Position numbers and translations under genes: made by a program. From assembly GCA_009694305.1 (NCBI GenBank), contig SHVL01000003.1, positions 1,508 to 65,507 of the forward strand: a stretch of 64,000 bases of DNA, read 5' to 3'. Numbering within the stretch: the first letter of the stretch is position 1; each line of letters begins with the position of its first letter. Below the pieces are notes generated by a model that saw nothing but the letters and a program-made list of their open reading frames with translations, did no database searches and was not told the DNA's origin. This DNA comes from Thermoleophilia bacterium (GTDB lineage Bacteria; Actinomycetota; Thermoleophilia; Gaiellales; Gaiellaceae). Shown piece after piece: positions 5,684 through 58,760 of this stretch.

Positions 5684-5695
5684 GGCAACGATGCC
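5684..5695 (+). promoter_or_regulatory. Hexaloop hairpin overlapping the P-II leader terminator (ANTAR-substrate-like)
   Basis: The plus strand reads GGC-AACGAT-GCC, with loop A1 and G4. The 3' arm begins the terminator 5' arm. The stem is only 3 bp. Confidence 0.3.
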
Positions 5696-5730
5696 TCAGT
5701 GCTCTCTGCGAGCCCTGGGGCTTTTTGTTG
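5693..5730 (+). terminator. Intrinsic-terminator-like hairpin in the P-II/amt 5' leader
   Basis: The plus strand reads GCCTCAG-T-GCTC-TCTGC-GAGC-C-CTGGGGC followed by TTTTTGTTG. It is followed by the SD GAGGAGG (5738-5744) and the ATG at 5753. Confidence 0.65.
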
Positions 5731-5752
5731 CTCCAACGAGGAGGCCGGGCAG

Positions 5753-6058
5753 ATGATGAAAGTCGAAGCGGTGGTTGTTCGCGACCGCATCGAGACGGTG
5801 ATCGAGGCAGTGGGTCACGGACGCGAGAAAGGGATTACCCACGAGTACCGGGGTCGCGTGTTCGAGTCGCGCTTCCTGCCGAAGGCTCTGATGACCTTCG
5901 TCGTTCCCGCTGGGATTGTGGACGGCGTGATTGACGCCATCGTGGATGCTGCGCGCACCGGCCGCGCGAGTGGAGACGGCATCTGCTGGGCTTCTCCTGT
6001 AGGCCGCGTGACCCACAACCGAACAGGAGCAAGGCTGGGCGAGGTGGGCGAGGTATGA
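5753..6058 (+). CDS. P-II (GlnB/GlnK) family-like protein, shortened (101 aa)
   Basis: The sequence reads MKVEAVV..., GHGREKGITHEYRG, FLPK and GDGICW...RTG, which parallels the canonical P-II order. About 14 residues corresponding to strand beta2 are absent. Its stop overlaps the amt ATG (ATGA). Confidence 0.6.
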   Translation: MMKVEAVVVRDRIETVIEAVGHGREKGITHEYRGRVFESRFLPKALMTFVVPAGIVDGVIDAIVDAARTGRASGDGICWASPVGRVTHNRTGARLGEVGEV

Positions 6059-37806: not shown

Positions 37807-38600
37807 GCGTGCTGCGCACCATCGAAAGCAAGATCGAGGGCCTTTTCGAGGGCCTCTTCGGGCGCGCTTTCAGAACACACGTCCAGCCCGTCGAGTTGGC
37901 CCGGAAGCTTGCCAAGGAGATGGACGAGCACCGCTCGGTCTCGATCTCACGGGTCTACGTTCCCAACGAGTACACGATCTACCTCTCGAGCGCCGACCGG
38001 CAGGAGTTCGCCTCGTACGAGGGCTCGCTCATCGGTGAACTGCAGGAGTATCTGACCGAGCACGCCCGACGTGAGGCGTACGCGTTGTTGACGCCGCCTC
38101 GCGTGCGTTTCGCAACCGACGACGACCTTGCCGTCGGTGAGTTCGGGATTGCAACGCGCGTGGCTCAGCCCCAGGAAGGTGTCCCCGCCCCCCCCGCGCT
38201 CCCCGCGCTGACGCCGGTAGTGCCGCCGCCGCTGGCTGCAACGACCACCATGATCTACAGGCAGGGTGAGCAGGAAGCAGTTGCACCCGTCGTGCCGCCC
38301 GTTCGCGCGCCCGAACCCGAGATCGTCACCCTCACCGTGGAGGGACGGTCGCACCCGGTCACGCCCACCGGGTTCGTCGTCGGGCGTTCCCGCGAGTGCG
38401 ACCTTTGCGTCAGCGACGGCAACGCGTCACGCCGTCACGCCGAGGTGGTGCTCGAGGGCACGTCGTACTTCGTCGTCGATCTGGGCTCCACGAACGGCAC
38501 CGAGTTGAACGGCCGGAGGATCATGCGAGAGGCGCTGGCCGACGGTGACCGCATCACTATCGGTGCGACCGACCTCGTCTTCGGTCGCGCGCTTCCGTAG
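37803..38600 (+). CDS. fhaA: FhaA-like protein (DUF3662 N-domain plus C-terminal FHA)
   Basis: The N-terminus is MSVLRTIESKIEGLFEGLFGRAF. The C-terminal FHA reads GRSRECDLCVSDGNASRRHAEV...VDLGSTNGTELNG. ATGA overlap with the kinase. Confidence 0.85.
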   Translation: MSVLRTIESKIEGLFEGLFGRAFRTHVQPVELARKLAKEMDEHRSVSISRVYVPNEYTIYLSSADRQEFASYEGSLIGELQEYLTEHARREAYALLTPPRVRFATDDDLAVGEFGIATRVAQPQEGVPAPPALPALTPVVPPPLAATTTMIYRQGEQEAVAPVVPPVRAPEPEIVTLTVEGRSHPVTPTGFVVGRSRECDLCVSDGNASRRHAEVVLEGTSYFVVDLGSTNGTELNGRRIMREALADGDRITIGATDLVFGRALP

Positions 38601-38601
38601 C

Positions 38602-39093
38602 GTGACGACGGCCCTCGATACCGAGCAGACGCTGCTCGTGCTGAAGATCGCGTTTCTCGTGCTCCTGTACCTCTTCATCTGGGCCGTCGTGCGATCCGTC
38701 ACCCGGGATCTCCGGTCGGTGCCGCAGGAGTCGATCGTACTCAGCGCCAAGGAGGCGAACGAGCTCAGGGCACGCTACGAGCCGGTTGTGCCCACGCCTT
38801 TCGCCCGCATCCTCGTACTCGAAAGCCCGACGCTGCAGCCCGGTAGCACGATCGAGCTGCGGGAGCCGACCCGGGTCGGTCGTGGCGGTGAAAACACCAT
38901 CCGGCTCGACGGCGACGACTTCGCGTCAACACGGCATGCCATGCTCGAACCGCGCCCGGACGGTCTCTGGGTCGAGGACATCGGTTCGACGAACGGCACG
39001 CTCGTCAACGGCGCTCGCGTCACGACCGCCCGGCTGCTCGTACCGGGCGACGTCGTCCGAATCGGCAAGACGGATCTGCAGGTGGAGACGTGA
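38602..39093 (+). CDS. fhaB: FhaB/FipA-like TM plus FHA protein
   Basis: It has an N-terminal TM and the FHA region VGRGGENTIRLDGDDFASTRHAML...IGSTNGTLVNG. Confidence 0.82.
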   Translation: MTTALDTEQTLLVLKIAFLVLLYLFIWAVVRSVTRDLRSVPQESIVLSAKEANELRARYEPVVPTPFARILVLESPTLQPGSTIELREPTRVGRGGENTIRLDGDDFASTRHAMLEPRPDGLWVEDIGSTNGTLVNGARVTTARLLVPGDVVRIGKTDLQVET

Positions 39094-40007
39094 GAACCGG
39101 CCGCGGGAGCGCGCTCACCGACACCGGTCGTCGGCGGCTGCACAACGAGGACACCTTCGTCTGCGAACCACCGCTCTTTGCGGTGGCCGACGGTGTGGGC
39201 GGTGCCCAGGCAGGCGAGGTCGCCTCTCTCCTCGCCGCAGCGACGCTCGAAGAACGGGCAGCGGGCGCCCTTGGTGAGGAGACGCTCACGACGCTGATCG
39301 TCGAGGCAAACAACCGGATCTACGCCCGTGCGTTCGATGATCCGGCTGCCGCCGGGATGGGAACGGTCGTCACCGCCCTGCTCGTGGACGAGACCGCCGG
39401 CACGGTTTCGATCGGCCACGTCGGTGACTCCCGGGCATACCGCCTCCGGGACGGAGCCCTCGAGCAACTGACGCCCGACCACTCGCTGGTCGGCGAGCTG
39501 GTTCGCTCCGGGCGCCTTTCGATCGAGGAGGCAGAACAGCACCCGCACCGATCCGTGATCACGCGCGCGGTCGGCACCGAGCCCCTCGTCGAAGTCCACA
39601 CCGACACGCTCCCGGCCCTGCCCGGTGATCTCTATCTGATCTGCTCCGACGGGCTCACCGACATGGTCAAGGACACGCTGATCGTCGAGTTGATCGTCGC
39701 AGCCGACCTCGACCCGGACAGGGCGGCCGAGGCGCTCGTTGACGCCGCAAACGCTGCGGGTGGAATCGACAACATCACGGTCCTCCTCTTCGAGATCCTG
39801 GCTGGAGACCCGGTCTCGGGCCCGACACCGGCAGTCCCTGCCCCCGTCAGTGAGGTGGAGATAGAGATGGAGGTGGAGGTCGCGGCACCTGCCGCACCGG
39901 TGCACCGCCACGGTGCGGGGGCGGGCGGCCGTTGGGTGGCTCTCCTGACGATCCTCCTGGCAATCGCAATCGCCGCGTTCGTCATCTGGTGGAGCCTCAA
40001 GCGGTGA
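39090..40007 (+). CDS. pstP: PP2C Ser/Thr phosphatase with C-terminal TM (PstP-like)
   Basis: Motifs include NEDTF, VADGVGG and CSDGLTD, with a C-terminal TM WVALLTILLAIAIAAFVIWW. Confidence 0.88.
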   Translation: MRTGRGSALTDTGRRRLHNEDTFVCEPPLFAVADGVGGAQAGEVASLLAAATLEERAAGALGEETLTTLIVEANNRIYARAFDDPAAAGMGTVVTALLVDETAGTVSIGHVGDSRAYRLRDGALEQLTPDHSLVGELVRSGRLSIEEAEQHPHRSVITRAVGTEPLVEVHTDTLPALPGDLYLICSDGLTDMVKDTLIVELIVAADLDPDRAAEALVDAANAAGGIDNITVLLFEILAGDPVSGPTPAVPAPVSEVEIEMEVEVAAPAAPVHRHGAGAGGRWVALLTILLAIAIAAFVIWWSLKR

Positions 40008-41314
40008 GCGCGCGGAACAGGGAGCTCCTCAACCTCGGTTTCGCTGCTCTCGTTGCCTCGGCTGCGTTCGCCAGCGTCTCCATCGTCGGTACCGGGCTCG
40101 TGACGACGCACTGGCTCGGGTACGTCGGAGTGATCTTCGGTCTCTACCTCGTTGCACACGTGGTTGGCCGCTTCGCGGTTCCCTACGCCGACCCGACGCT
40201 CCTCCCGATCGTTGGCCTCCTCACGGCGATAGGGCTCACGGTTATCTACCGGCTCGGCCCCGAGGATGCGCGCCGACAGGCTGTCTGGATAGCCATCGGG
40301 ATCGGGATTCTCTGCGCAACGCTCTTCTGGCTGCGCTTCGACTACCGCGTGCTCGAGCGCTACAAGTACCTCTTCGGGATCTCCGCGATCGTTCTGCTGA
40401 TGCTGCCGTCTATCCCCGGCCTCGGCCACCGGGTCAACGGTGCCAATCTCTGGATCAAGGTCGGCGCGATGCAGTTCCAGCCGGGAGAGCTCGCAAAGAT
40501 CTTCATGATCATCTTCCTCGCCGGCTACCTGCGCGACAAGCGAGAGGCCCTGGCGCAGGGTCGGCTCAAGGATCTCGGGCCTCTGCTCCTGATCTGGGGG
40601 GCCGCGATGCTCGTGCTCGTGCAGACGAGCGATCTGGGCTCGGCGCTGCTCAACTTCGGCATCTTCCTGGCAATGGTCTATGCCGCTACCGGACGGCTCG
40701 TGTACGTGGGTGCCGGGATCGCACTCTTTCTTGCAGGCTCCGCCGCGCTCTACAACGCCCTCGACCGCGTGCAACAGCGCGTTACCGTCTGGCTGCACCC
40801 GTGGACTGACGACAAGGTGTTCTGCGCGATCAACGGGAAGCTCGAATACCGGCAGAACTGCGACTCCTACCAGCTCGTCAAGAGCCTGTACTCGATCGCG
40901 AACGGCGGCTTCGGCGGCACCGGACTCGGTAAGGGGACGTTCACGACGGTTGACGGAGTCCAGCTGATCCCGTACCTCAACACCGACTTCATCTACTCAG
41001 CGATCGCACAGGAGGCCGGTCTGATCGGGGCCGCCGCCGTGCTGCTCCTCGTGATGGTGTTGGTGGCGAGGGGCATGCGGATCGCCCTGATCGCCCAGGA
41101 CGGTTTCTCGAAGCTCCTCGTGACCGGCCTCACGTTCGGGCTTGCCCTGCAGACGTTCATCATCGTCGGTGGCGTGCTCCGCGTCGTGCCGTTGACGGGA
41201 ATCACGCTGCCGTTCATCTCCTACGGCGGCTCCTCGATCCTTGCGAACTTCGTCATGCTCGCGCTGCTGCTTCTCGTCTCGAATCGGGCGACCGCAACGG
41301 CAGTCAACCGGTGA
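40004..41314 (+). CDS. rodA: FtsW/RodA/SpoVE family peptidoglycan polymerase
   Basis: This polytopic protein has QPGELAKI, NGGFGGTGLGKG and PFISYGGSS. The GTG start overlaps the pstP stop. Confidence 0.88.
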   Translation: MSARNRELLNLGFAALVASAAFASVSIVGTGLVTTHWLGYVGVIFGLYLVAHVVGRFAVPYADPTLLPIVGLLTAIGLTVIYRLGPEDARRQAVWIAIGIGILCATLFWLRFDYRVLERYKYLFGISAIVLLMLPSIPGLGHRVNGANLWIKVGAMQFQPGELAKIFMIIFLAGYLRDKREALAQGRLKDLGPLLLIWGAAMLVLVQTSDLGSALLNFGIFLAMVYAATGRLVYVGAGIALFLAGSAALYNALDRVQQRVTVWLHPWTDDKVFCAINGKLEYRQNCDSYQLVKSLYSIANGGFGGTGLGKGTFTTVDGVQLIPYLNTDFIYSAIAQEAGLIGAAAVLLLVMVLVARGMRIALIAQDGFSKLLVTGLTFGLALQTFIIVGGVLRVVPLTGITLPFISYGGSSILANFVMLALLLLVSNRATATAVNR

Positions 41315-42789
41315 ACCGTCAGATCTCCCGTGTCGCCGGCCTCGCCATGGGCCTGATGATCGTCCTGATCGTCGTGACAACGTACTGGCAGACATGGGCG
41401 CGCCCTTCCCTCGCGGAGCGGCAGGACAACGCGATCCAGCGGGTCGCCCAGTTCGAGATACGACGTGGCCCGATCCTCTCTCCGTCACGTGTGCTGGCAC
41501 GGAACCGGGAGCGCCATGTCGGAGAGCGGACCTTCTATCTCAGGCGGTACCCGCAGGGGCAATTCACCGCACACGTCGTCGGCTACTCCACGGTCGCCCG
41601 GGCACGAACCGGTCTGGAGCGGTCACTCAACTCGATCTTGACAGGGGCGGATCACAGCCTCTCCTCCCTCGTTGACCAGTCTCTCGACCGCCTCAATGGG
41701 AGGCCTATCGTCGGCGACACCGTCGTGACGACACTCGACGTGAACGGCCAGCGTGTGGCCCTCGAGGCTCTCGGCTCCCGCTGCGGCGCCGTCGTAGCGC
41801 TCGATCCGCAAACGGGCCGCGTGCGCGTCATGGTGTCGTCTCCGAGCTACAACCCGAACGATGTCGAGGACAACTTCGGCCGTATCGAGAAGATCCGTGC
41901 CGACTGCACTCCAGCCTCTCCCCTCCTCAACCGGGCGAGTCAGGGCCTCTACCCACCGGGCTCGACGTTCAAGGTCGTGACGGCCTCGGCGGCACTCGAC
42001 TCGCGGAAGTTCACGACGGCCTCCACCTTCGTCGATCCGGGGTACTGCACGGTCTACGGCAAGAGGGTGAACAACTTCGACACGAGCCGCCCCTTTGGCA
42101 GAGTGACGCTCGCTACGGCCCTGCAGTACTCGGTCAACTCGGTGTTCTGCAACATCGGGCTCGCCCTCGGTGCGAAGGCGATCCTCAGGCAGGCAAAGGC
42201 CTTCGGATTCTACGAGCGGCCACCTCTCGAGACACCCGAGAGCGAGCGGCTGCCGAGCGGCCTCTACCGTGGCCGCGAGCTCTACGATCCACGTCGTGAC
42301 CGTGATGTGGATCCCGGTCGGATGGCGTTCGGCCAGGAGCGGCTGCTCGTCACCCCCCTGCAGATGGCGATGGTCGTGGGCGCGATCGGCAACGACGGCA
42401 TCCTTATGCGCCCGTTTGTCGTCGAAAAGACCGTGACCCCGAACGGCAAGACCAGCTTCCGTACCCGCCCAACGAAGATTCGCCGGGCGGTCACCCCTGC
42501 GACCGCCCGGGACGTCGGCGACATGATGGTGCGGGCCGTCCAGGCGGGAACGGGCACCGCCGCGCAGATCTCCGGCCTGCGGATCGGCGGCAAGACCGGT
42601 ACGGCGGAAACCGGAATAACCGGGAGCAACACCACCTGGTTCATCGCGTTCGCCGGCGCAGAGGGCCAGAAGCCGAGACTCGCAATTGCCGTCGTCCTCC
42701 AGAATCAGTCACTGACAGGCGGCGCAACGGCTGCCCCCATCGCACGACAGGTAATGCAGGCACTCTTGACACCGACGGCGAAGAACTAG
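41311..42789 (+). CDS. pbpA: Class B penicillin-binding protein (PbpA-like transpeptidase)
   Basis: It carries SxxK (PPGSTFK), SxN (YSVNS) and KTG (GKTGTA). Confidence 0.88.
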   Translation: MNRQISRVAGLAMGLMIVLIVVTTYWQTWARPSLAERQDNAIQRVAQFEIRRGPILSPSRVLARNRERHVGERTFYLRRYPQGQFTAHVVGYSTVARARTGLERSLNSILTGADHSLSSLVDQSLDRLNGRPIVGDTVVTTLDVNGQRVALEALGSRCGAVVALDPQTGRVRVMVSSPSYNPNDVEDNFGRIEKIRADCTPASPLLNRASQGLYPPGSTFKVVTASAALDSRKFTTASTFVDPGYCTVYGKRVNNFDTSRPFGRVTLATALQYSVNSVFCNIGLALGAKAILRQAKAFGFYERPPLETPESERLPSGLYRGRELYDPRRDRDVDPGRMAFGQERLLVTPLQMAMVVGAIGNDGILMRPFVVEKTVTPNGKTSFRTRPTKIRRAVTPATARDVGDMMVRAVQAGTGTAAQISGLRIGGKTGTAETGITGSNTTWFIAFAGAEGQKPRLAIAVVLQNQSLTGGATAAPIARQVMQALLTPTAKN

Positions 42790-42801
42790 ACGACCCGTTT
42801 T

Positions 42802-44772
42802 ATGGCGCACAACGACCTCACCGGCACCCTCTTCGCAGACCGCTACCGCATCGAGCGCAAGCTTGGCTCGGGTGGGATGGCCGACGTCTGGCTCGCGGAG
42901 GATCAGGAGCTCGGTCGTCGCGTCGCGGTGAAGATCCTCCACGAGCGCTACGCGACGGACGAGCAGTTCGTCGAGCGCTTCCGCCGCGAAGCGACGCACG
43001 CTGCGGGCCTCTCTCACCCGAACATCGTCTCGATCTTCGACCGTGGCGTTGCCGACGGCTCCTACTACATCGTGATGGAGTACATCGAGGGCCGCACGCT
43101 CAAGGAGCTCGTCGTCACGCGTGGGCCATGCCCGGTGCCGGTCGCGATCTCCTACACGCGCCAGATCGTCGCTGCACTGCGGTACGCGCACAAGAACGGG
43201 ATCATCCACCGGGATATCAAGCCGCACAACGTGCTGGTAGACCGCGAGGGGCGCGTCAAGGTCGCAGACTTCGGCATCGCTCGCGCCGGGGCAAGCGAGA
43301 TGACCGAGCCAGGGTCGATCGTGGGAACGGCGCAGTACCTCTCGCCCGAGCAGGCCCGTGGCGCTCCGGTGGACGAGAGCTCCGACCTGTACTCGACGGG
43401 AATCGTCCTCTACGAGCTGCTGACCGGGACGGTGCCGTTCACGGGAGAGACGCCTGTCGAGATCGCCATGAAGCATCTCTCCCAGGCGCCGGAGCCACCG
43501 TCTGCCCGTCGGCCAGAGATTCCGCACGACCTCGATCTCGTCGTCCTCCGAGCACTTGCGAAGGAGCCGGGCGAGCGCTACCGGTCGGCCTCCGACTTCG
43601 ACCACGATCTCGAACTCGTCGCCCGTGGTGACGCGGTCGGGTCGGAGACGGCGGCCGCGGCAACGATGGTCCTTGCCGGTGCCGGTGCCGGTGCAATGGG
43701 TGCGACGGCCGTGACACGGGTTGGCGCAACCCTCCCGCCGGCGGCGGGGGCATCCTCCGCGGGTGACGAGCGCTACCGGGCGTACGACGCTGCGGTGGTT
43801 CGCAGACGAAGCCCCTGGCCCTGGATATTCCTGGTCATCGCGCTCCTTGCGCTGGGAGTGGGAGGATGGTTCCTGTACGGCAACGTGCAGGAACAGATCG
43901 AGAGCAACAAGCCGCTCGTCGTCGAGCAGTACACGGGCATTCTCGAGGTGCGCGCAGTCGATCTGATCATCAGTGACGGCTTCGAGCCGAATGTCCGCCG
44001 CGTCCCGAACGGCGATCAGCCTGCGGGCATCGTGTTCAACCAGTCACCGGTCGAGGGGACGGCGCTCCCGCGTGGCAGCATCGTGACGATCCTCGTCTCC
44101 ACGGGAAAGAAGAGCGTGAGGGTGCCCTCTGTCGTCGGCTCCCAGGTGACCGATGCGGTCGCCACCCTTACGAGGGCAGGCCTCGTGGCGAAGAGCGTCG
44201 GTGTTCCGTCCGACAAGCCGGCGGGCACGGTCACCGCCCAGGATCCGGCAGCGGGCACCTCGCTCGTCGAGGGGGCGACGGTTCGGATCAACTACTCGTC
44301 GGGGCCCAAACAGGTCGCCGTACCCCCCGTCGTGGGGCTCGACTACTCGGCCGCGCTCCAGCAACTCCAGGCAGCCGGCTTTGCCGTCGCCCGCACCGAC
44401 GTCGAAAGCGAGCAGCCTGCGGGCGTCGTCGTGAGCCAGGTGCCCACGGGCTCGTCTACCGCGACAAAGGGCTCGACGATCACGCTCTCGGTGTCGAATG
44501 GCCCGCAGACAACGCCTGTCCCGGACGTCACCGGCCTCACGGCAGCCGCCGCGAAGACGACGTTGGCCGATGCCGGCTTCAAGGTCATCGTGACCGATCA
44601 GGAGACCGACATCGAGACCTTCGACGGCGTCGTCATCTCGCAGGACCCGCTGGGCAACACCCAGCAGGACCCAAACACGGTGATCACGCTGTTCGTCGGC
44701 GTATACGTCCCCGTAGTGACAACCCCGGCCGATACGACAACCACGGTCATCGCGCCGCCGACAACGCCATGA
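42802..44772 (+). CDS. pknB: Ser/Thr kinase PknB with TM and four PASTA repeats
   Basis: The kinase domain has GSGGMADVWLA, HRDIKPHNVLV and DFGIA. It has a single TM, then four repeats of about 65 aa of the form VP.V.G......A...L...GF. Confidence 0.92.
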   Translation: MAHNDLTGTLFADRYRIERKLGSGGMADVWLAEDQELGRRVAVKILHERYATDEQFVERFRREATHAAGLSHPNIVSIFDRGVADGSYYIVMEYIEGRTLKELVVTRGPCPVPVAISYTRQIVAALRYAHKNGIIHRDIKPHNVLVDREGRVKVADFGIARAGASEMTEPGSIVGTAQYLSPEQARGAPVDESSDLYSTGIVLYELLTGTVPFTGETPVEIAMKHLSQAPEPPSARRPEIPHDLDLVVLRALAKEPGERYRSASDFDHDLELVARGDAVGSETAAAATMVLAGAGAGAMGATAVTRVGATLPPAAGASSAGDERYRAYDAAVVRRRSPWPWIFLVIALLALGVGGWFLYGNVQEQIESNKPLVVEQYTGILEVRAVDLIISDGFEPNVRRVPNGDQPAGIVFNQSPVEGTALPRGSIVTILVSTGKKSVRVPSVVGSQVTDAVATLTRAGLVAKSVGVPSDKPAGTVTAQDPAAGTSLVEGATVRINYSSGPKQVAVPPVVGLDYSAALQQLQAAGFAVARTDVESEQPAGVVVSQVPTGSSTATKGSTITLSVSNGPQTTPVPDVTGLTAAAAKTTLADAGFKVIVTDQETDIETFDGVVISQDPLGNTQQDPNTVITLFVGVYVPVVTTPADTTTTVIAPPTTP

Positions 44773-45785
44773 GCGCGCGACTCCGCGTTGCCGTGCTCGC
44801 GGGTGGGCGCTCGAGCGAGCACGATATCTCACTCGCCTCCGCACGATCGGTCGTGGAGGCGCTCGACCCCGCCCGCTACGAGACGAAGACGATCGAGATA
44901 GGCCGTGACGGCGTCTGGGCCCTGTCTCCGACCCCGGGGCCGGCAGGCCTGCCGGCAGCAGCGCACGAGAGCCTGCCAATCCCGACGTCGGCCGCTCCAC
45001 GGGCGCTTGGCGGCGTCGATATCGTCCTGCCCATTCTTCACGGGCCTTTCGGCGAGGACGGCACGGTGCAGGGCCTGCTCGAGCTTGCCGACATTCCGTA
45101 TGTCGGTGCGGGAGTGACGGCGTCCGCCCTCTGCATGGACAAGGACCTCTTCAAGGCCGTGCTCCGTGACCGCGGCATCCCCGTTGCCGCGAGTGTCACG
45201 CTCCGCACCGGCGACGCGGTGGAGAACCCCTTTGGCTATCCCGTCTTCGTCAAGCCGGCACGTCTCGGTTCCTCTGTCGGGATCTCGAAAGCCCGCACGG
45301 CAACCGAGCTCGACGAGGCGGTCGAACTGGCACGACGGCACGACGACAAGGTGCTCGTGGAGGAGTTTCAACCGGGTGTCGAGGTGGAGGTCGGTGTGCT
45401 CGGGAACCGCGAGCCGGTCGCTTCCGTCGTCGGGGAGATCGTCGCGCACGCGGACTGGTACGACTTCGAGGCGAAGTATGCGGAGGGCGGCATGGATCTG
45501 ATCGTCCCCGCACGTCTGCCCGACGAGACGACCGCGGAGGTGCGCCGGCTTGCCGTCGAGGCATTCATCGCAACCGATTGCGAGGGGATGGCACGGGTGG
45601 ACTTCTTCGTTCGCCCCGATGGGCAGGTCATCGTCAACGAGCTCAACACGATCCCGGGGTTCACCGCGACGAGCGTCTACGCACGCCTGTTCGCCGAGAG
45701 CGGTATCTCATACCCTGCCCTACTCGACCGCCTCGTCGAGTTTGCGCTCGAGCGGTACGAGCAGCGGCGGGCGCTTGCGTATTGA
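44769..45785 (+). CDS. ddl: D-alanine--D-alanine ligase
   Basis: It has LHGPFGEDGTVQGLLE, the ATP-grasp core and a C-terminal NELNTIPGFT. The ATG overlaps the pknB stop (ATGA). Confidence 0.92.
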   Translation: MSARLRVAVLAGGRSSEHDISLASARSVVEALDPARYETKTIEIGRDGVWALSPTPGPAGLPAAAHESLPIPTSAAPRALGGVDIVLPILHGPFGEDGTVQGLLELADIPYVGAGVTASALCMDKDLFKAVLRDRGIPVAASVTLRTGDAVENPFGYPVFVKPARLGSSVGISKARTATELDEAVELARRHDDKVLVEEFQPGVEVEVGVLGNREPVASVVGEIVAHADWYDFEAKYAEGGMDLIVPARLPDETTAEVRRLAVEAFIATDCEGMARVDFFVRPDGQVIVNELNTIPGFTATSVYARLFAESGISYPALLDRLVEFALERYEQRRALAY

Positions 45786-50853: not shown

Positions 50854-51171
50854 TCAGACGTCAACGACGACAACGCCGTCGTCTCGAACCCGCACCGGAA
50901 ACGTGGCAACGGCGATGTAGGCGGGCAGCGTCAGAGCACGCCCGGTCTCGATGTCGAACCGAGCGCCGTGGCGGGGACAGATGACGACCCGTTCGCCACA
51001 GTCGAACTCTCCCTCACACAGGGGGCCCTCGTCGTGGGTGCATCTGTCCTCGATCGCGAACAGCTTGCCGTCACAGTTGTAGACCCCGATCGAGAGGAGC
51101 GGACGAGCCTCCACGATCCGTACCGACCCGGGAGGCAGGTCGGTGAGTGGGCAGACGTCGAGTTCGGACAC
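50854..51171 (-). CDS. Rieske [2Fe-2S] ferredoxin-like protein
   Basis: It has CTHDEGPL...CPRHGARF (CxH...CxxH). It is the last gene after sufS-sufU. Confidence 0.85.
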   Translation of the reverse strand: MSELDVCPLTDLPPGSVRIVEARPLLSIGVYNCDGKLFAIEDRCTHDEGPLCEGEFDCGERVVICPRHGARFDIETGRALTLPAYIAVATFPVRVRDDGVVVVDV

Positions 51172-51181: not shown

Positions 51182-51616
51182 CTAGTTGACCGAGATCTCG
51201 CCGCTCGAGGTACCCCACTCCTCCGGAAGCGGTGTACCTCTGGAGCGATGAAGCGCCACCTTGAGCACTCCCATCCCGAGGAGAGCGCATTTGAGCCGGA
51301 CGGGGCTCAGCGGGATCCCGATCTCGTCGAGCAGCTCCTCCTTGCGCATCACCGCGATCTCCTGCGCCGACCGACCCTTCACGAGGTCGGTCAGCATCGA
51401 GGTCGCAGCCTGGCTGATTGCACAACCGCGGCCCTCGAACCCGACGCTCTCGATGATGTCGCCTTCGCCGAACCGCACAGAGACCGTCACCTCGTCGCCA
51501 CAGAGGGGGTTCTGACCCTCTGCGACGGCGTCGTTCGGGTCGAGGATGCCGTGATTTCTGGGCATCTTGTAGTGATCGAGAATGACTTCGCGGTACATCT
51601 GCTCGAACTCGCTCAT
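51182..51616 (-). CDS. sufU: SufU/IscU-type Fe-S cluster scaffold / sulfur acceptor
   Basis: Motifs include YREVILDHYKMPRN, NPLCGDEV, GCAISQA and RLKCALL. ATGA overlap with sufS. Confidence 0.88.
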   Translation of the reverse strand: MSEFEQMYREVILDHYKMPRNHGILDPNDAVAEGQNPLCGDEVTVSVRFGEGDIIESVGFEGRGCAISQAATSMLTDLVKGRSAQEIAVMRKEELLDEIGIPLSPVRLKCALLGMGVLKVALHRSRGTPLPEEWGTSSGEISVN

Positions 51617-52857
51617 CCGAGGCTCTCCTTCACCTTGTGCAGTCCGGCTACGAGGCGGTCTACCTCCTCGGCAATCGAGTACACATAGAAGCTGGCCCGG
51701 GTGGTCGCAGCGACGCCGAGTCGGGTCATCAGCGGTTGCGTGCAGTGGTGGCCGGCACGCACCGCTACACCTTCCCAGTCGAGGATCTGGGCAACATCGT
51801 GCGGGTGAACGCCGGCGACCTCGAACGAGACGATTCCGGCCCGACGCTCGAGGGGAGGCCCGAACACCCTCACCCAGTCGAGTTCGTCGAGACGGGCCAT
51901 GGCGTACCGGGTGAGCTCGTGCTCGTGCTCCTCGATCGCGGAAAGGCCGATACCGGTGATGTAGTCGATCGCTGCTCCGAACCCGACCGCCTCCGCAATC
52001 GCCGGCGTTCCCGCCTCGAACTTGTACGGCAGCTCGTTGAAGGTCGTCTTGTCGAGGCCAACCGACCGGATCATCTCGCCGCCGAGGTTGAACGGCGCCA
52101 TCTCCTCGAGCAGCTCCCGCCGGCCCCAGAGTGCGCCGATCCCGGTCGGGCCGCACAGCTTGTGGGAGGAGAGGGCGAGAAAGTCACAGCCGAGTGCCTG
52201 CACGTCGATCGACCGGTGTGGTGCTGCCTGGGCGGCATCGACGACGATGATCGCCCCCTGCTCGTGCGCCCACGCAGCGATCTGCTCGACCGGATTGATC
52301 GTGCCGAGCGAGTTCGAGACCAGCCCGACCCCGACGACCTTGATCGAGTTGTCGCGCGCAAGACCATCGAGGGCATCGAGCTGAAGCTCGCCGGCGTCGT
52401 CGATCGGGATGTGCCTGAAGGCTGCCCCCGTTCGGCTCGCTATGAACTGCCAGGGTACGAAGTTCGCGTGATGCTCGAGCTCGGTGATGAGGACGGTGTC
52501 GCCGGGCCCGAGATGCTGCAGGCCCCAGGCATAGGCGACCAGGTTGATCGCCTCGGTGGTGCTCCGCGTGAAGATGACCTCGCGCTCCGAGGGCGCGTTG
52601 ACAAAGGTCGCGACCGTGTGCCGCGCGCTCTCGTATCCCTCGGTCGCCCGCTCGGCGAGCCGGTACACACCACGATGGACGTTGGCGTACTCGTGCTCGT
52701 AAAACGCGCGCATCCGATCGAGAACCTGGCGTGGCTTCTGGGTAGACGAGGCCGAGTCGAGGTACGCAAGCGGACGGCCACCGGCGAGTTCCTCGAGGTA
52801 CGGGAAATCTGCACGGAGAACGGCCGAGTCGAGCGGGCTCGCTGTGTTCATGACCAT
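51613..52857 (-). CDS. sufS: Cysteine desulfurase, SufS type
   Basis: It has HRGVY, SSHKLCGPTGIG (PLP Lys) and RAGHHCTQPL (active-site Cys). Confidence 0.9.
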   Translation of the reverse strand: MVMNTASPLDSAVLRADFPYLEELAGGRPLAYLDSASSTQKPRQVLDRMRAFYEHEYANVHRGVYRLAERATEGYESARHTVATFVNAPSEREVIFTRSTTEAINLVAYAWGLQHLGPGDTVLITELEHHANFVPWQFIASRTGAAFRHIPIDDAGELQLDALDGLARDNSIKVVGVGLVSNSLGTINPVEQIAAWAHEQGAIIVVDAAQAAPHRSIDVQALGCDFLALSSHKLCGPTGIGALWGRRELLEEMAPFNLGGEMIRSVGLDKTTFNELPYKFEAGTPAIAEAVGFGAAIDYITGIGLSAIEEHEHELTRYAMARLDELDWVRVFGPPLERRAGIVSFEVAGVHPHDVAQILDWEGVAVRAGHHCTQPLMTRLGVAATTRASFYVYSIAEEVDRLVAGLHKVKESLG

Positions 52858-52963: not shown

Positions 52964-54232
52964 TCAGACGAGGAGCGGATCGACGGCGGCCGCGACGAAG
53001 AGCAGTGCCAGATAGGCGAGCGAGTAGTGGAACAGCACGACGGCGCGACGGCGCGAGGTGTCGCGGCGGAGTTGCCAGGCGAGGAGCAGGAAGTAGGCGC
53101 CGAGAAGAACGGCGGCGACGGTGTAGACGGGCCCGAACCAGTAGCCGACGCCGACCGTGAAGGCGACGAGCACGAGCGAGTAGAGCAGGATCTGCCGTGT
53201 CGTCTCACGGTCGCCCTTCGTGCCGGGCAGCATCGGGACGTTCGCGGCCGCGTAGTGCTCCTTGATCATCAATGCGAGCGCCCAGAAGTGGGGTGGTGTC
53301 CAGAGGAAGACGATCAGGAACAGCCACAGCGCGGGAAGCGTGAGGTTCCCCGTTGCCGCGGCGTAGCCGACGAGTGGCGGCACTGCTCCGGCTGCTCCAC
53401 CGATGACGATGTTCTGGTCGGTTGACCGCTTCAGGTAGCCGGTGTAGACGACGACGTAGAAAAGGCCGCCGACAAGAGCGAGCAGGGCGGTGAGAACGTT
53501 CACGGTCGTTGCGAGCAGTGCGAACGAGAGCGCCATCAGGACGACGCCGAACTCGAGCGCCCGGGGTGCAGCGACGCGCCCCGATGCAACCGGGCGCGCA
53601 GCGGTGCGCTCGCCCATGAGCCTGTCGATGTCGGCATCCATCACGTGGTTGAGCGCACTCGAGCCACCACAGGCGAGCGCGAGTCCGACCATCATCGCGA
53701 GGAACTCCGGGCCGTTCGGCCAGCCACCGGCCCCGACGAACATTCCAGCCGCACCGGTGAGCAGCAGGAGCGACATGATGCGCGGCTTGGTCAGCGTGAT
53801 GTAGTCGCGCCAGGGGCCGGCCGGGAGCGGATCTCCACGGTACGAGAGAACGAGCACGACGAGCGAGGCGGCAAGCGACGCTCCGGCGGCCGCGACGTGA
53901 GCGAACACGGCCCAGCGCGCATCGTCGCTCCACGCCACGAGGCCGCCTGTGGCAACCGCGACGAGCAGGAGGGCAAGCGCCGCAGTCGCGGCGCCGACCA
54001 GGCGTGGGTAGGCGGCGCGGGCGATGACAACGGCGGCGACGAGCAGCGGGATGGCGACGAGCGCCGCAGCCCAGTGGCCTCGACCCGATTCGAGTGCGGC
54101 GCTCACGACGATTGCAGCGGTTGCCGCAGCTGCTGCAACGACGGCGCCATGCAGGAACGGCCCGGGGGCGGCGTGAGACGTGCGATCGGGACCGGGCGTG
54201 CTCGGGATCCCCGGCAGGTCGCTAGAGCGCAT
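52964..54232 (-). CDS. ctaB: Heme O synthase (protoheme IX farnesyltransferase) with about 125-aa N-terminal 4-TM extension
   Basis: The CtaB core runs from WRDYITLTKPRIM and includes NHVMDADIDRLMGERTAARP and WTPPHFWALA. I chose the ATG at 54232 (MRSSDLPG), which overlaps the end of the upstream oxidase-like gene by 11 nt. Confidence 0.8.
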   Translation of the reverse strand: MRSSDLPGIPSTPGPDRTSHAAPGPFLHGAVVAAAAATAAIVVSAALESGRGHWAAALVAIPLLVAAVVIARAAYPRLVGAATAALALLLVAVATGGLVAWSDDARWAVFAHVAAAGASLAASLVVLVLSYRGDPLPAGPWRDYITLTKPRIMSLLLLTGAAGMFVGAGGWPNGPEFLAMMVGLALACGGSSALNHVMDADIDRLMGERTAARPVASGRVAAPRALEFGVVLMALSFALLATTVNVLTALLALVGGLFYVVVYTGYLKRSTDQNIVIGGAAGAVPPLVGYAAATGNLTLPALWLFLIVFLWTPPHFWALALMIKEHYAAANVPMLPGTKGDRETTRQILLYSLVLVAFTVGVGYWFGPVYTVAAVLLGAYFLLLAWQLRRDTSRRRAVVLFHYSLAYLALLFVAAAVDPLLV

Positions 54233-55847
54233 TGCGCTTCTCCAACGCCTCGCGAAGGTCGGCGAGCGGCCTTGCGCTCGCGACCCGGGGCACGGAATCG
54301 AAGTTGTGCGGCGGCGGCGGCGAGGTCGTGTACCACTCGAGCGTGTCCGCGAGCCAGGGGTCGTTACCCGCACGCGTACCGTTGTGGGCGCGGACGACCG
54401 CGAGCAGGAAGACCAGGACGCCGAAAGCGGTCACGAATGCCCCGACGGTCGAGATCAGGTTGTAGGCCGCCGTGCTGCCGTGGGCGCTGAAGCTCGCCGC
54501 GCCGCGCGGCTGACCCTGATCACCGAGCAGGAACCCGACGAAGAACGTGCAGTTGAATCCGACGAAGAGCGCGACGGCAGCGGCACGGGTGAGGCCGGTG
54601 TCGAGGAGCCGTCCGAAGATCTTGGGCCACCAGTAGACGATGCCGCCGAGCAGTGCGAGGAGCGCTGTGCCCCAGAGGAGATAGTGCGCGTGCGCAACGC
54701 CGAACGCTGTTCCGCGTAGGCCTCGATCGTTGCCGAAGACCGCGAGCACGAGGGCTGAGAGGATGCCGATTGCAAACAGGACGAGTGCGCCGCCCGCAAA
54801 GAGCAGCGGCGCCGTCCAGCGCAGCGACGACCGTGCCCTCCACAACGTGGTCTTGAGGAGCCCGAGCGCAACGACCGAGGGGACGGCGGCGAGGACGGCA
54901 AGGAGCAGCAGCAGCACGCTCGGCTTCTTGCCGACCCCGGTCGAGTACGCGTGATAGAGCACGAGCAGGACCGTCAGGCCGCCGATGCCGACAAGTGACT
55001 GCGCGAGCACGCGGGCATTCGCGATCGCCCTTCCTGCAAAGACGGCGACAATCTCCGCCAGGATGCCGAAAACCGGCACGAGTGCCGCATAGGCAAACGA
55101 CTGCCCGAAGAGCCAGATCACCTTCGGTTCGACCGCCCCGCCGTCGAGGAAGAAGTCGAACGAGCCGGCGAACTTTCGCTCGAGCAGGACAAGAACGAGT
55201 CCGACCGCTGCGACGGGTACGAGCACGAGTGTCAGCCACGACCAGACGTAGACGGCCCAGGTGAACATCGGCGTGTTCGGCCACCCCATTTCCTCGGCGC
55301 GCAGGGAACGAATCGTCGCGATCAGGTTCACCGCGGTAAGGACGAGCGAGAGGGCAAGGAGCAGTAACCCGATCAGCCAGAGGTCGGTGCCGCTGCCTTC
55401 CTGGGTGAGTGCGAGCGGTGGAAACGCTGTCCAACCGGCCTGTGATGCGCCGCCTCCGGCGAAGGCCGAGAGAACGACGGCGACACCGCCGAACACAAAC
55501 AGCCAGAGCCCGGTCGCGGCGGCACCCGGCATCGCAATGCGTCGGGCTCCGATCATCAGGGGGACGAGGTAGGTGGCGAGCCCCGTGACGGCCGGGAGGA
55601 GAACGAAGAAGACGAGCAGGGTGCCGTGCATGGTGAGAACGCCGCGGTACGTTCCACTCCCGAGGATCGAGGTGTCGGGGCGCGTGACCTGCAGTCGCAT
55701 GAGGAGCGTCAGGACGCCTGCGATCAGAAAGAAGACCCCCGCCCAGCCCAGGTACAGCGCGCCGATCCGTTTGTGATCGACCGATACCAGCCAGCTCACG
55801 ACGCGGCCGCGGTGCCACTCGGCTACCGGCTGGGTCTTGCTGCTCAT
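54222..55847 (-). CDS. Heme-copper oxidase subunit I family protein, divergent (CuB and channel residues substituted)
   Basis: It is collinear with CtaD as I recall it: WLVSVDHKRIG, TMHGTLLVFF, VAHAHYLLWG and the C-terminal PPPPHNFD. However, GHPEVY reads GQSFAY, WAHHMF reads LYHAYS, and PTGxK reads PSVVA. Confidence 0.75.
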   Translation of the reverse strand: MSSKTQPVAEWHRGRVVSWLVSVDHKRIGALYLGWAGVFFLIAGVLTLLMRLQVTRPDTSILGSGTYRGVLTMHGTLLVFFVLLPAVTGLATYLVPLMIGARRIAMPGAAATGLWLFVFGGVAVVLSAFAGGGASQAGWTAFPPLALTQEGSGTDLWLIGLLLLALSLVLTAVNLIATIRSLRAEEMGWPNTPMFTWAVYVWSWLTLVLVPVAAVGLVLVLLERKFAGSFDFFLDGGAVEPKVIWLFGQSFAYAALVPVFGILAEIVAVFAGRAIANARVLAQSLVGIGGLTVLLVLYHAYSTGVGKKPSVLLLLLAVLAAVPSVVALGLLKTTLWRARSSLRWTAPLLFAGGALVLFAIGILSALVLAVFGNDRGLRGTAFGVAHAHYLLWGTALLALLGGIVYWWPKIFGRLLDTGLTRAAAVALFVGFNCTFFVGFLLGDQGQPRGAASFSAHGSTAAYNLISTVGAFVTAFGVLVFLLAVVRAHNGTRAGNDPWLADTLEWYTTSPPPPHNFDSVPRVASARPLADLREALEKRNAL

Positions 55848-55902: not shown

Positions 55903-56202
55903 ATGAGTGAGAACACCCGACAGCGAACCCGTGTTCACCTCCCCGCCGATGTGACCCGTCCCTTCGAGGTGTTCGTCAACGGCGTGCCCCAGAAGGAGGG
56001 ATCGGACTACGTCGTCCGCGACGGCTCACTCGTCTTCGAGCGGCCGATGAAGGAGGAAGGCAAGCTCGGGCTGATGCGGTGGACGGCAATCGCACTCGGT
56101 ATCGCAGGCTCGTACAGGCAGAACGACTCGGTTGACGTGGCCTACGAGCGGGACGGCCGTAAGGTCGTTGCGGCGAAGTTGCCCGTCGAGAACTGCGATT
56201 GA
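55903..56202 (+). CDS. 99-aa hypothetical protein
   Basis: The ORF has genome-typical codon bias. I chose the ATG at 55903. I recognise no motif. Confidence 0.4.
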   Translation: MSENTRQRTRVHLPADVTRPFEVFVNGVPQKEGSDYVVRDGSLVFERPMKEEGKLGLMRWTAIALGIAGSYRQNDSVDVAYERDGRKVVAAKLPVENCD

Positions 56203-56242
56203 CCTGACCCGGATCGGTGCCTCCGGCAGTAGGCTGACCGTC

Positions 56243-57220
56243 GTGGCCCGGGACAACAGCATCGTCGTCGAGAAGCTCGTACGGGAGTTCAGGAAGGGGC
56301 CGCGAGCGGTAGACGGGATCGACCTTCACGTGGCGCCCGGCGAGATCTACGGCTTCCTCGGCCCGAACGGGGCGGGCAAGTCCACCACCGTCCTGATGCT
56401 GACGACGCTGCTTCCGGCGACCACGGGTAGCGCCCGCGTGGGCGGATACGACATCCGTACCGAGGGGCCGAAGGTTCGCTCCGTGATCGGTGCGGCGCTG
56501 CAGGAGGCCGCTCTCGATCCCCTGTTGACGGGTCGTGACCACCTGAAGCTCCAGACGATGCTGCAGGCCGTCCCGAAGGCCGAGCGCAAGCCACGACAGA
56601 ACGAGCTTCTCGATCGGGTCGGCCTCACCGAGGCAGCCGACCGCAAGGTGCGCGGCTACTCGGGTGGCATGAAGCGCCGCCTCGACCTTGCACTCGCGCT
56701 CGTGCACCGGCCGAGCATCCTGTTCCTCGACGAGCCGACCACGGGCCTCGACCCACAGAGTCGCACCGCCCTCTGGGAAGAGGTCGCACGTCTCGCGCGC
56801 GAGGACAACGTGACCGTGTTCCTGACGACGCAGTACCTCGAGGAGGCAGACGTGCTCGCCGACCGGGTCGGGATCATCGACAACGGCCGGATCGTCGCGG
56901 AGGGAACCCCGGCGGCGTTGAAGGCGGAGATCGGCCGACCGTCGATTCACGTCACCCCCGTCCGTGACGACGACAGGTCAGTGATCACGGAGCTGCTCGG
57001 GCGCTTCGGTGAACCGCTCGGGAGCGAGCGCGACCTCGCTGTACGCCTGCGGGAGGGGTCAGGTCTCGTGGACGTGATCAGGGCCATGGACGCCGACGGG
57101 GTCGTCGTGGACGACATCGAGTTGCGTGCGCCAACACTCGACGACGTCTTTCTCGCCAAGACGGGGCGGACGCTCGAAGGAGCCGCGGCCGAGAAAACGG
57201 TCGCGCCGTCGGTTCGATGA
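56243..57220 (+). CDS. ABC transporter ATP-binding protein (DrrA/ABC-2 exporter type)
   Basis: It has Walker A GPNGAGKST, the signature YSGGMKRRL and Walker B ILFLDEPTTGLD. I chose the GTG start at 56243. Confidence 0.88.
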   Translation: MARDNSIVVEKLVREFRKGPRAVDGIDLHVAPGEIYGFLGPNGAGKSTTVLMLTTLLPATTGSARVGGYDIRTEGPKVRSVIGAALQEAALDPLLTGRDHLKLQTMLQAVPKAERKPRQNELLDRVGLTEAADRKVRGYSGGMKRRLDLALALVHRPSILFLDEPTTGLDPQSRTALWEEVARLAREDNVTVFLTTQYLEEADVLADRVGIIDNGRIVAEGTPAALKAEIGRPSIHVTPVRDDDRSVITELLGRFGEPLGSERDLAVRLREGSGLVDVIRAMDADGVVVDDIELRAPTLDDVFLAKTGRTLEGAAAEKTVAPSVR

Positions 57221-57996
57221 GCTCCCCCTTGTTGACGCAGGTCGGCGCACTCGCACAGCGCTCCGTCGTGCGGACCGCGCGTCAACCTGCAAGCGCGATC
57301 CCGCCGCTCGTCTTCCCGGTCTTGCTCCTGCTCGTGAACTCGGGGGGCCTCAAGGCCTCGACGTTGCTGCCGGGGTTTCCGACCGATTCGTTCCTTGCCT
57401 TCGCGCTCGCTGTCCCCTTCATCCAGGGTGCGCTCTTCTCCATGGTGAATGCCGGTACCGACCTCGCACGCGATATCCAGACCGGGTTCTTCTCGCGGCT
57501 CTCGCTGACGCCCGTGCGCGGATCGGCTCTGCTTGCAGGGCAGATAACCGGCATCGTCGTGCTCGGCATCGTGCAGGCGGTGTTCTACATCTCCGTCGGG
57601 CTTGTCCTCGGCGTCCGGTTCGCCGCAGGCCCGGCAGGCATCGCCCTCCTGCTCGTCTACGCAGCGCTCGTAGCCATCGCTTTCGGCGGGCTTGGCTCTT
57701 TCCTCGCCCTCCGTCTCGGCTCGTCGGAGTCGATCCAGGGGCTCTTTCCCGCGCTGTTCGTCTTCCTGTTCATCTCCTCGATGAACACGCCTCGCGACCT
57801 GATCGCCGTCTCCTGGTTCCGGTTTCTCGCCACGATCAACCCCGTCTCCTACCTGATCGAATGTGTCCGCAGCCTCATCATCACCGGCTGGGACACGAGG
57901 GCGCTCGTGCTCGGCTTTGGCTTCGCGACCCTGATCGCGATCGCGTCGCTCGGTGCTGCGAGCTGGGCCCTCGGACGCAGGATGGAGCGCACATGA
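57217..57996 (+). CDS. ABC-2 type transporter permease
   Basis: This is a six-TM hydrophobic protein. ATGA overlap with the ATPase gene. Confidence 0.8.
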   Translation: MSSPLLTQVGALAQRSVVRTARQPASAIPPLVFPVLLLLVNSGGLKASTLLPGFPTDSFLAFALAVPFIQGALFSMVNAGTDLARDIQTGFFSRLSLTPVRGSALLAGQITGIVVLGIVQAVFYISVGLVLGVRFAAGPAGIALLLVYAALVAIAFGGLGSFLALRLGSSESIQGLFPALFVFLFISSMNTPRDLIAVSWFRFLATINPVSYLIECVRSLIITGWDTRALVLGFGFATLIAIASLGAASWALGRRMERT

Positions 57997-58760
57997 GGCT
58001 CCGGGGCGTGATCGCGGGTGTTGCCTGGCGGATGCTGAAGAACGTGGTCACGACGCCGTCGATCCTCCTGCCGTCGTTGCTGTTCCCGCTCCTCTTCTTC
58101 GTCGCCTTCGCGGGTGGGCTCTCCCAGGTACAGAACGTGCCGGGCTTCGACTACCCGAACGGCTACACGGCCTTCCAGTTCGTCTTCGTCCTGCTGCAGG
58201 CAGCGGCTTTCGGAGGCGTCTTCACGGGCTTCGCTATCGCACGTGACTTCGAGGGCGGCTTCGGCCGCCGGCTGATGCTCGCGTCGCCGAACCGGCTCGG
58301 CATCGTGCTCGGGTACGGCGTCGCGGCGGTTTTTCGCTGGGTCATCACGGCGATGCTCTTGACGGTCGTGGCCCTCGCCTTCGGGATGCAGGTCGGGGGC
58401 GGCCCCGTTGACCTCGTTGCGCTCTACACGCTCGCGTTGATCATCAACGTCTGCGGTTTTCTCTGGTCGGCCGGGATCGCCATGCGGATACGGACGATGC
58501 AGGCGGCGCCGCTGATGCAGATGCCCGTTTTCCTTCTTCTCTTCCTTGCCCCGGTCTACGTGCCGCTGTCGCTTCTCGGAGGGACGTTGCACGCCGTTGC
58601 GAGATTCAACCCCGTCACCTACGCCCTCGGGACAGGCAGAGGCCTCCTGGCCGGTGACGCGACCCAGGTCGGACTGAGCTTCGGCCTGGCGCTCGTCCTC
58701 GTAGTTGTCTTCTCGGTCTGGGCGCTGCGTGGGCTGCGCTCTGCCGAGGCCGCCGGGTAG
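57993..58760 (+). CDS. ABC-2 type transporter permease (second)
   Basis: It is hydrophobic, paralogous in layout to the preceding permease, and joined by an ATGA overlap. Confidence 0.8.
   Translation: MRLRGVIAGVAWRMLKNVVTTPSILLPSLLFPLLFFVAFAGGLSQVQNVPGFDYPNGYTAFQFVFVLLQAAAFGGVFTGFAIARDFEGGFGRRLMLASPNRLGIVLGYGVAAVFRWVITAMLLTVVALAFGMQVGGGPVDLVALYTLALIINVCGFLWSAGIAMRIRTMQAAPLMQMPVFLLLFLAPVYVPLSLLGGTLHAVARFNPVTYALGTGRGLLAGDATQVGLSFGLALVLVVVFSVWALRGLRSAEAAG

Follow-up and report, generated by a model that had tools for sequence, protein, structure and literature searches.

The window analysed here, a 64,000-nucleotide stretch of DNA from a Thermoleophilia bacterium (NCBI GenBank assembly GCA_009694305.1, contig SHVL01000003.1, positions 1,508 to 65,507 of the forward strand), encodes a degenerate subunit I of a heme-copper oxidase, called the CtaD-like protein below. 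Its heme-ligating histidines are all in place, two of the three CuB ligands and both proton channels are gone, and the same changes recur in a subfamily that is evidently under purifying selection. The gene is directly followed, with a short overlap, by ctaB, the gene for heme O synthase. The reading that we favour, and to which we give about an even chance, is that the protein is a dead oxidase subunit that would be retained in the membrane beside heme O synthase, as a partner that binds heme but catalyses nothing.

Family, fold and residue changes of the CtaD-like protein

The gene starts with an ATG preceded by GGAG 6 nucleotides (nt) upstream, as read in the sequence, and lies as follows:

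54222–55847, minus strand: degenerate A-family oxidase subunit I, 541 amino acids (aa), with 12 predicted transmembrane (TM) helices (open reading frame (ORF), Pfam and NCBIfam profiles, alignment, AlphaFold2 (AF2) model, and ratio of nonsynonymous to synonymous substitution rates (dN/dS, or omega))

The Pfam COX1 profile, PF00115, covers the protein end to end (profile positions 1–436 of 436, 285 bits). Scores against the more specific models are 410 bits for TIGR02891 (CtaD_CoxA), below its equivalog cut-off of 671, and 365 bits for the actinobacterial aa3 model NF050116, below its cut-off of 880. The closest solved relatives found by phmmer are mycobacterial CtaD chains, with E about 6e-89. 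The AF2 model, of moderate confidence (predicted local distance difference test (pLDDT) 63.5, predicted template modelling score 0.69), consists of 12 long helices, and Foldseek superimposes it on aa3 subunit I with TM-scores of 0.72–0.76. To all appearance, the protein derives at full length from an A-family oxidase subunit I.

The residue changes, read from the phmmer alignment to mycobacterial CtaD, are listed here with the canonical motif first:

Helix VI, FGHPEVY to FGQSFAY: CuB His replaced by Gln, D-channel Glu by Phe, Tyr kept
WAHHMY to VLYHAY: first His replaced by Tyr, second His kept
PTGIK to PSVVA: K-channel Lys replaced by Ala
GAPDVAFPRLN to GARRIAMPGAA: Asp replaced by Arg, Asn by Ala
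Mg site, DFHVTD to DRGLRG: His and Asp each replaced by Gly
Heme-propionate motif, MPRR to QPRG: second Arg gone
Heme-ligand motifs, TMHGT (helix II) and AHxHY (helix X): the same in both proteins

The positions of the three CuB ligands (bovine His240, His290, and His291) are thus occupied by Gln249, Tyr298, and His299, with one histidine of the three left. Tyr253 is present, and the partner that would form the His–Tyr cross-link (His240–Tyr244) with it is Gln249. At the entrance of the D channel, Arg103 replaces Asp and Ala110 replaces Asn, at its end Phe251 replaces Glu (for which some oxidases have a YS motif), and in the K channel Ala327 stands in place of Lys. The His and Asp of the Mg site are Gly376 and Gly379. 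The heme ligands His74, His386, and His388 are all present, His74 and His388 belonging to the low-spin heme and His386 to the high-spin heme. A misalignment hiding the CuB histidines was considered and rejected, since HMMER, MAFFT, and the profile agree on Gln249, Tyr298, and His299, and there is no other His nearby. With one CuB ligand of three left, and without either proton channel, the Mg site that bridges to subunit II, or the second propionate Arg, the predicted protein cannot form a canonical heme-copper centre and can act neither as an oxygen reductase nor as a proton pump.

An earlier note on this DNA, made from the sequence alone, had described the protein as oxidase-derived and lacking a canonical heme-copper centre, which agrees with the full-length match to PF00115 and the loss of two CuB ligands. 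All the substitutions that it listed for CuB, the D and K channels, and the Mg site are present in the phmmer alignment, as are the intact TMHGT and AHxHY motifs behind its statement that the heme-ligating histidines of helices II and X are conserved. Two of its motif strings were misplaced, LRGTA by two residues and LYHAYS by one, although what it concluded from them is borne out by the profile alignment, which, in a check that the note had proposed, restores no histidine at Gln249 or Tyr298. Its description of the neighbourhood needs one correction: genes for COX2, COX3, or COX4 indeed do not adjoin the ctaD-like gene, but the downstream ctaB with its overlap had been overlooked. A Pfam scan of 48 ORFs, which make up most, not all, of the 64-kb window, gave none of these three subunits.

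Conservation, synteny and graded loss of ligands

Among 5.8 billion proteins searched, more than 90 full-length orthologues of about 541 aa were found, with 58–93% identity. The motifs G[QM]xFxY, YH, and AHAHY are shared by 91 of them, the three heme-ligating histidines are invariant in these 91, and Gln249, Tyr298, His299, and Tyr253 are 99–100% conserved across the subfamily. The substitutions are evidently not due to chance or error, because 91 full-length orthologues carry them. In species-representative genomes the family occurs in 11 metagenome-assembled genomes (MAGs), all of them Gaiella or Thermoleophilia, and the full-length orthologues likewise stem from Gaiellales MAGs throughout; members are named in databases either 'cytochrome c oxidase subunit I' or 'cbb3-type cytochrome c oxidase subunit I'.

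Nei-Gojobori estimates of dN/dS for the orthologues are 0.08–0.2 at dS of 0.05–0.7, compared with 0.03–0.08 for the adjacent ctaB, and the gene is, as far as these values tell, kept by purifying selection. A decaying pseudogene, the outcome against which the earlier note had suggested examining orthologues and their dN/dS, was rejected in view of the conserved substitutions, the low ratios just given, and an ORF free of interruptions in the window and in about 90 orthologues. Single-base insertions do break the ORF in three MAG copies (L013, L014, and L017), and ctaB is likewise broken in L014 and L169. The MAGs with broken CtaD-like ORFs stem from a long-read project, and the insertions are probably assembly errors, because ctaB is broken as well in L014 and L169; real decay in single lineages is possible.

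Within the subfamily, constraint is unevenly distributed along the chain. Omega is lowest (0.13–0.16) in TM2, TM6, TM10, and loops IX–X and X–XI, and highest (0.34–0.39) in TM7–8, TM11–12, and loop XI–XII, with TM7–8 at 0.39. The least constrained stretch of all comprises the last 11 codons, which overlap the start region of ctaB (omega 0.53). The heme-binding helices therefore appear to be still under selection, whereas the helices that formerly carried CuB and K-channel residues and the propionate loop do not. A two-heme protein is plausible for the subfamily, because helices II, VI, and X are the most constrained.

The genes and elements next to the ctaD-like gene are these:

52964–54232, minus strand: ctaB, heme O synthase, 422 aa from the ATG at 54232 (NF003349, TIGR01473)
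54222–54232, minus strand: overlap of 11 nt between the ctaD-like stop (54224–54222) and the ctaB start (54232–54230), read in the sequence
53813–54232, minus strand: N-terminal extension of CtaB, about 140 aa, hydrophobic, with about four TM segments by inspection (tblastn)
55903–56202, plus strand: small ORF of 99 aa from the ATG at 55903, a homologue of Gaiella occulta Gocc_0093 (sequence comparison)

The trio of small ORF, CtaD-like protein, and CtaB is found in every locus of the family, and COX2 in none. In syntenic canonical relatives, the small ORF stands instead next to COX2 (which has a cytochrome c domain), COX1, and CtaB; the glycogen and pentose-phosphate genes on the flanks match, as does the overlap of 11 nt. 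Their COX1 is 44–46% identical to the CtaD-like protein and contains all the residues in question (H, E, Y, HH, K, D, N, and RR). Such a canonical ctaC–ctaD–ctaB arrangement occupies the syntenic site in L004, L015, L016, L021, L092–L103, and the G. occulta locus L166. Beside Gocc_0093, G. occulta, the type species and a cultured one, encodes COX2 (334 aa), a canonical COX1 (546 aa), and CtaB (408 aa), and the COX2 sequence contains a CuA-type motif, HSWWIPALGG...CAELCG..H.RM, plus CAKCH. Between the window and G. occulta, the UbiA domain of CtaB is 87% identical and subunit I 46%. Because canonical ctaC–ctaD–ctaB loci stand at the same site in relatives including G. occulta, the ctaD-like gene is, by gene order, the positional orthologue of a caa3-type ctaD in a lineage that lost ctaC. 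The association is strict, with a degenerate subunit I in every locus without ctaC and ctaC adjacent in every canonical relative.

The small ORF flanks canonical ctaC–ctaD–ctaB and degenerate operons alike, always divergent from the promoter region of the ctaD-like gene or ctaC in the loci examined, with identities of 49–88%. It has one short hydrophobic segment and no Pfam or NCBIfam match, and its sole match in the PDB, to a putative surface-anchored protein, is short and local (E 2.7e-5); it may be an oxidase-related factor. An ABC-2 exporter (a DrrA-like ATPase and two permeases, 56132–58760, plus strand) abuts it in the window. In relatives, the glycogen/maltose genes glgE–glgB–malQ lie between the small ORF and the same transporter, and their absence from the window locus points to a local deletion or rearrangement.

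In a neighbour-joining tree, all ctaC-less forms group together, with the canonical syntenic clade as their sister, and share the change Asp369 to Gly. The clade nevertheless comprises different ligand states:

Subfamily of the window: Gln, Tyr, and His at the CuB positions; all heme histidines kept
L020 and L027: Arg, His, and Arg at the CuB positions; L027 also lacks the heme a3 His
P0108 (locus L085): helix II His, two CuB His, and one helix X His lost
P0246 (loci L086–L090, metagenome contigs): no heme or copper ligand and no active-site Tyr

Even P0246, the most degenerate of these subunit I homologues, is an intact ORF of 534 aa with dN/dS of 0.28, and the CtaB next to it is 93% identical to that of the window. 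In the groups that are most degenerate, omega is about 0.28–0.33. A profile search of 1.8 billion representatives gave, among its top 30 matches, about 12 further clusters (at 50% identity) that are variously degenerate; those losing CuB or heme ligands fall within P0241–P0273 and include P0247, P0248, P0249, P0251, P0258, P0261, P0267, P0271, and P0273. Degenerate variants are 530–553 aa long in all cases except P0247 (509 aa). Four regions are kept in all of them: the N-terminal segment W..G.V..W..DHKRxG, loop II–III (PLxxGAR), the loop YWWPKxxGRxLD after helix X, and the C-terminal tail RxGxDPWxxDTLEWYTxSPPPxxNFDxxPxVxSxRPLxDLR. In the topology of A-type subunit I these shared motifs are cytoplasmic, and the active site of CtaB, a UbiA-family enzyme, is expected on the same face. 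The periplasmic (P-side) elements that face subunit II are lost in the degenerate forms. The differing ligand losses among the ctaC-less sisters point, as far as alignments can tell, to loss of catalysis rather than to a newly designed active site.

The linked ctaB gene and the weighing of possible roles

The identity of ctaB as a heme O synthase gene is supported by 336 bits against NF003349 (cut-off 246) and 316 bits against TIGR01473 (cut-off 210). A longer ctaB ORF from 54373 is probably not used, and the ATG at 54232 has its own GGAG 7 nt upstream, within the ctaD-like coding sequence. In L001, L002, L004, and the G. occulta locus, the gene calls give the same overlap of 11 nt, and the arrangement suggests, on the evidence of the reading frames, translational coupling of the two genes. 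The UbiA domain of CtaB is 87–95% identical in all relatives. The N-terminal extension is present in both canonical and degenerate Gaiellales loci (CtaB of 391–422 aa) and contains the conserved His-containing motifs E..GRGHW and W.V..HVAAA. It has no Pfam family above threshold, no NCBIfam match, and no relative in the PDB. A compact four-TM heme A synthase (a CtaA module) was considered for this extension and rejected, with no COX15/CtaA match even at E<=10. Downstream of ctaB, also on the minus strand, are genes for a SufS-type cysteine desulfurase (51613–52857), a SufU/NifU-N scaffold (about 51182–51640), and a small Rieske-type ferredoxin (50854–51171); relatives have other genes there, and the adjacency is probably incidental.

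The linkage with ctaB is the best functional clue available for the CtaD-like protein. Under the reading that we favour, the protein would still bind heme (b, o, or a), probably two hemes, and would be made in fixed proportion to CtaB through translational coupling. It would serve CtaB as a scaffold or stabiliser or, alternatively, would take up or pass on the farnesylated heme, a reactive product of CtaB. Its surviving cytoplasmic-face motifs would sit on the side where the active site of CtaB is expected. Heme O itself must serve another enzyme, because ctaB is strongly conserved even beside a ligand-free subunit I. Further oxidase loci are present in Gaiellales, which typically have several oxidases and two ctaB paralogues. 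The Gaiellales MAG at L168 (ERZ25039594 contig_5381) carries two additional heme-copper oxidase sets, placed back to back: one reads COX2–COX1–UbiA, with a second ctaB of 300 aa that has no extension, and the other, divergent set reads COX2–COX1 (807 aa)–COX3. The G. occulta genome paper describes another oxidase at Gocc_0001/2/4. Loss of the syntenic caa3 oxidase would be tolerable because Gaiellales carry such further loci.

Several observations weigh against a heme-binding partner of CtaB. Gene order and the overlap are the sole link to CtaB, and the arrangement is ancestral, since it is found at canonical loci too. A function common to the clade cannot, on present alignments, need heme, because relatives with a CtaB that is 93% identical keep a ligand-free subunit I. 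The CtaD-like protein evolves 3–4 times faster than CtaB, with identities within the family of 58–83% for the former and 87–95% for the latter, whereas at canonical loci the two proteins diverge nearly in step (66–73% for CtaD and 68–77% for CtaB). At the 221 positions that are >=95% invariant in canonical relatives, the CtaD-like protein keeps 111 residues and replaces 85, often an aromatic residue by Ala; taken with the faster evolution, these 85 replacements, many of them to Ala, show what looks to be strong relaxation. On the technical side, the AF2 model has only moderate confidence at its pLDDT of 63.5, the Nei-Gojobori dS values of 0.5–0.9 lie near saturation, and the neighbour-joining tree may suffer from long-branch attraction. 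As to the question of oxidase co-occurrence, P0228 and P0005 come from different MAGs.

One rival reading is a passive relic whose ORF stays open only for the translation of ctaB, the remaining constraint reflecting the harmless insertion of an obligatory 12-TM protein. In its favour, the overlap and the operon structure are of ancestral origin and occur universally, the ctaD-like gene outpaces ctaB by the factor just given, sister lineages differ in the ligands that they have lost, up to all heme ligands, replacements tend towards Ala, Gly, and Leu, and omega climbs to about 0.28–0.33 in the groups with the strongest degeneration. Read-through, however, predicts omega near 1, whereas the subfamily shows 0.08–0.2, and it predicts that in-frame deletions are tolerated, whereas the length stays within 530–553 aa in all degenerate variants but one. 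The soluble loops and the C-terminal tail are strongly conserved, the last 11 codons, over the ctaB start region, are the least constrained (omega 0.53), ctaB has a GGAG of its own, and all 91 orthologues have the three heme histidines. We consider a passive relic unlikely. Should the protein be only a slowly decaying relic, its interest would be mostly evolutionary.

A quite different account, and one that we think rather improbable, makes the protein a new heme enzyme or gas sensor, in which the high-spin heme would face a pocket of Gln249, Tyr298, His299, Tyr253, and Phe251, possibly with another metal. New chemistry that dispenses with subunit II and proton channels could then be imagined, by analogy, as the sensing or dismutation of NO, peroxide, or O2; the putative NO dismutases derived from qNOR provide a model. 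The 99–100% conservation of Gln249, Tyr298, His299, and Tyr253 across the subfamily, the position of TM6 and TM10 among the most constrained segments, and the retention of both heme sites are as this account would have them, and loss of the electron-input subunit would fit an electron-neutral reaction. Yet the ctaC-less sisters at the same locus differ at just these positions (R/R, Q/V/D, or none), TM7–8, with Tyr298 and His299, is the most relaxed region, and His to Gln and His to Tyr are single-nucleotide changes to be expected from drift. Accessory genes for a new activity are absent from the neighbourhood, where ctaB and housekeeping genes are found. The new kind of enzyme implied in the earlier note is weakened by the origin of the gene as a ctaC-less positional orthologue of a caa3 ctaD, by its 3–4 times faster evolution, and by the varied losses in sisters. 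The note's remark that nitric oxide reductase (NOR)-type relatives keep the three active-site histidines or replace only one fits PMC11214002, where gNOR is described as the first family of heme-copper oxidases in which any of them is replaced. A related proposal, limited to the subfamily, has it as more than a scaffold, namely as a new heme protein on the oxidase fold, with a Gln/Tyr/His/Tyr pocket at the high-spin heme, perhaps some metal in place of CuB, and chemistry or sensing (of NO, O2, or peroxide) free of electron input, or else as a dedicated carrier of heme O/A from CtaB; this, too, we would hold to be improbable.

Last, the protein might still function as subunit I of a terminal oxidase, paired with subunits II and III encoded elsewhere in the genome. 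The heme ligands and the Tyr are kept, and other oxidase loci do exist in Gaiellales; set against these are the loss of two of the three CuB ligands, of the D-channel Glu, Asp, and Asn, of the K-channel Lys, of the Mg site, and of the second propionate Arg, as well as scores far under the equivalog cut-offs and the presence of an adjacent ctaC in every canonical relative. We give this possibility almost no credence.

Whichever role applies, the CuB His trio is regarded as all but universal across the superfamily of heme-copper oxidases, and this clade has lost two of the three under what appears to be purifying selection. A clade of soil and water Actinomycetota thus keeps a subunit I that lacks both proton channels and subunit II, and counting its genes as oxidases would overestimate the aerobic respiratory capacity of Gaiellales MAGs. 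The graded series down to heme-free forms amounts to a natural experiment, in which the non-catalytic parts that matter would be the cytoplasmic-face motifs. Given its persistent coupling to ctaB, subunit I may have a part, other than catalysis, in the handling of heme O/A, a poorly understood step of oxidase biogenesis. In the literature, no earlier report was found of a heme-copper oxidase pseudo-subunit I, or of a conserved subunit I without copper and subunit II, and nothing relevant to degenerate subunit I or to Gaiellales oxidases was found beyond PMC11214002 and the G. occulta genome paper.

Other features of the window and comparison with known systems

Two other regions of the window deserve mention. 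An ORF at 6920–7381 (plus strand) matches only the C-terminal third of the ammonium transporter profile (280–396 of 399). An amt gene that is truncated or frameshifted is one possibility, an artefact of the crude ORF filter another. Near it, at 4015–5790, is a glutamine synthetase with a long N-terminal extension. The region 38545–45785 (plus strand) encodes an FHA protein, a PP2C phosphatase, FtsW/RodA, a penicillin-binding protein transpeptidase, a PknB-type kinase with PASTA domains, and Ddl, a classic actinobacterial cluster of cell-wall and division signalling that fits the origin of the window in Actinomycetota (Gaiellales).

Among known systems, the caa3/aa3-type CtaD proteins (that of G. 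occulta next to Gocc_0093, and the mycobacterial ones in PDB 6ADQ and 7RH6) are nearest to the CtaD-like protein. Both have the same fold, the same length and 12 TM helices, the same axial histidines of the low- and high-spin hemes, the active-site Tyr, the N-terminal DHKRIG, and the C-terminal PPPxHNFD...RPLxDLR, and the ctaD of G. occulta agrees, in addition, in its place in the genome and in its overlap of 11 nt with ctaB. Unlike these enzymes, the CtaD-like protein has no adjacent ctaC, bears the replacements His240 to Gln, His290 to Tyr, and Glu242 to Phe, and lacks the channels, the Mg site, and the second propionate Arg.

The CtaA–CtaB complex and Surf1/Shy1 are delivery and assembly factors for heme a/o in oxidase biogenesis. 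The role proposed here would resemble theirs by analogy, in that farnesylated heme would be bound or passed on and that the gene is physically coupled to ctaB. The CtaD-like protein differs from these factors in having no homology to them, with no CtaA signal in either the protein or the CtaB extension, and its role is deduced from gene order and heme ligands.

The NOR-type families (PMC11214002, 2024) resemble the CtaD-like protein in active-site ligands that depart from three His and Tyr and, in some of them, in the absence of proton channels. These families (cNOR, qNOR, gNOR, and others) are described as having a non-heme metal site of three His (or two His and Asp) plus Glu, with no active-site Tyr (PMC11214002), a pattern absent from the CtaD-like protein, whose closest relatives are A-family caa3 subunits. 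They are of B- or C-type ancestry, with at least two His and an acidic metal ligand, a partner subunit or quinol site, and a fixed new ligand set, whereas the CtaD-like protein is A-derived, keeps the Tyr, has one His and no partner, and belongs to a clade in which ligand loss varies from sister to sister. The putative NO dismutase derived from qNOR can be placed beside these families. As a general concept, pseudoenzymes offer the other parallel: as in the CtaD-like protein, catalytic residues are lost, the fold and purifying selection are kept, and the gene of the closest partner is retained.

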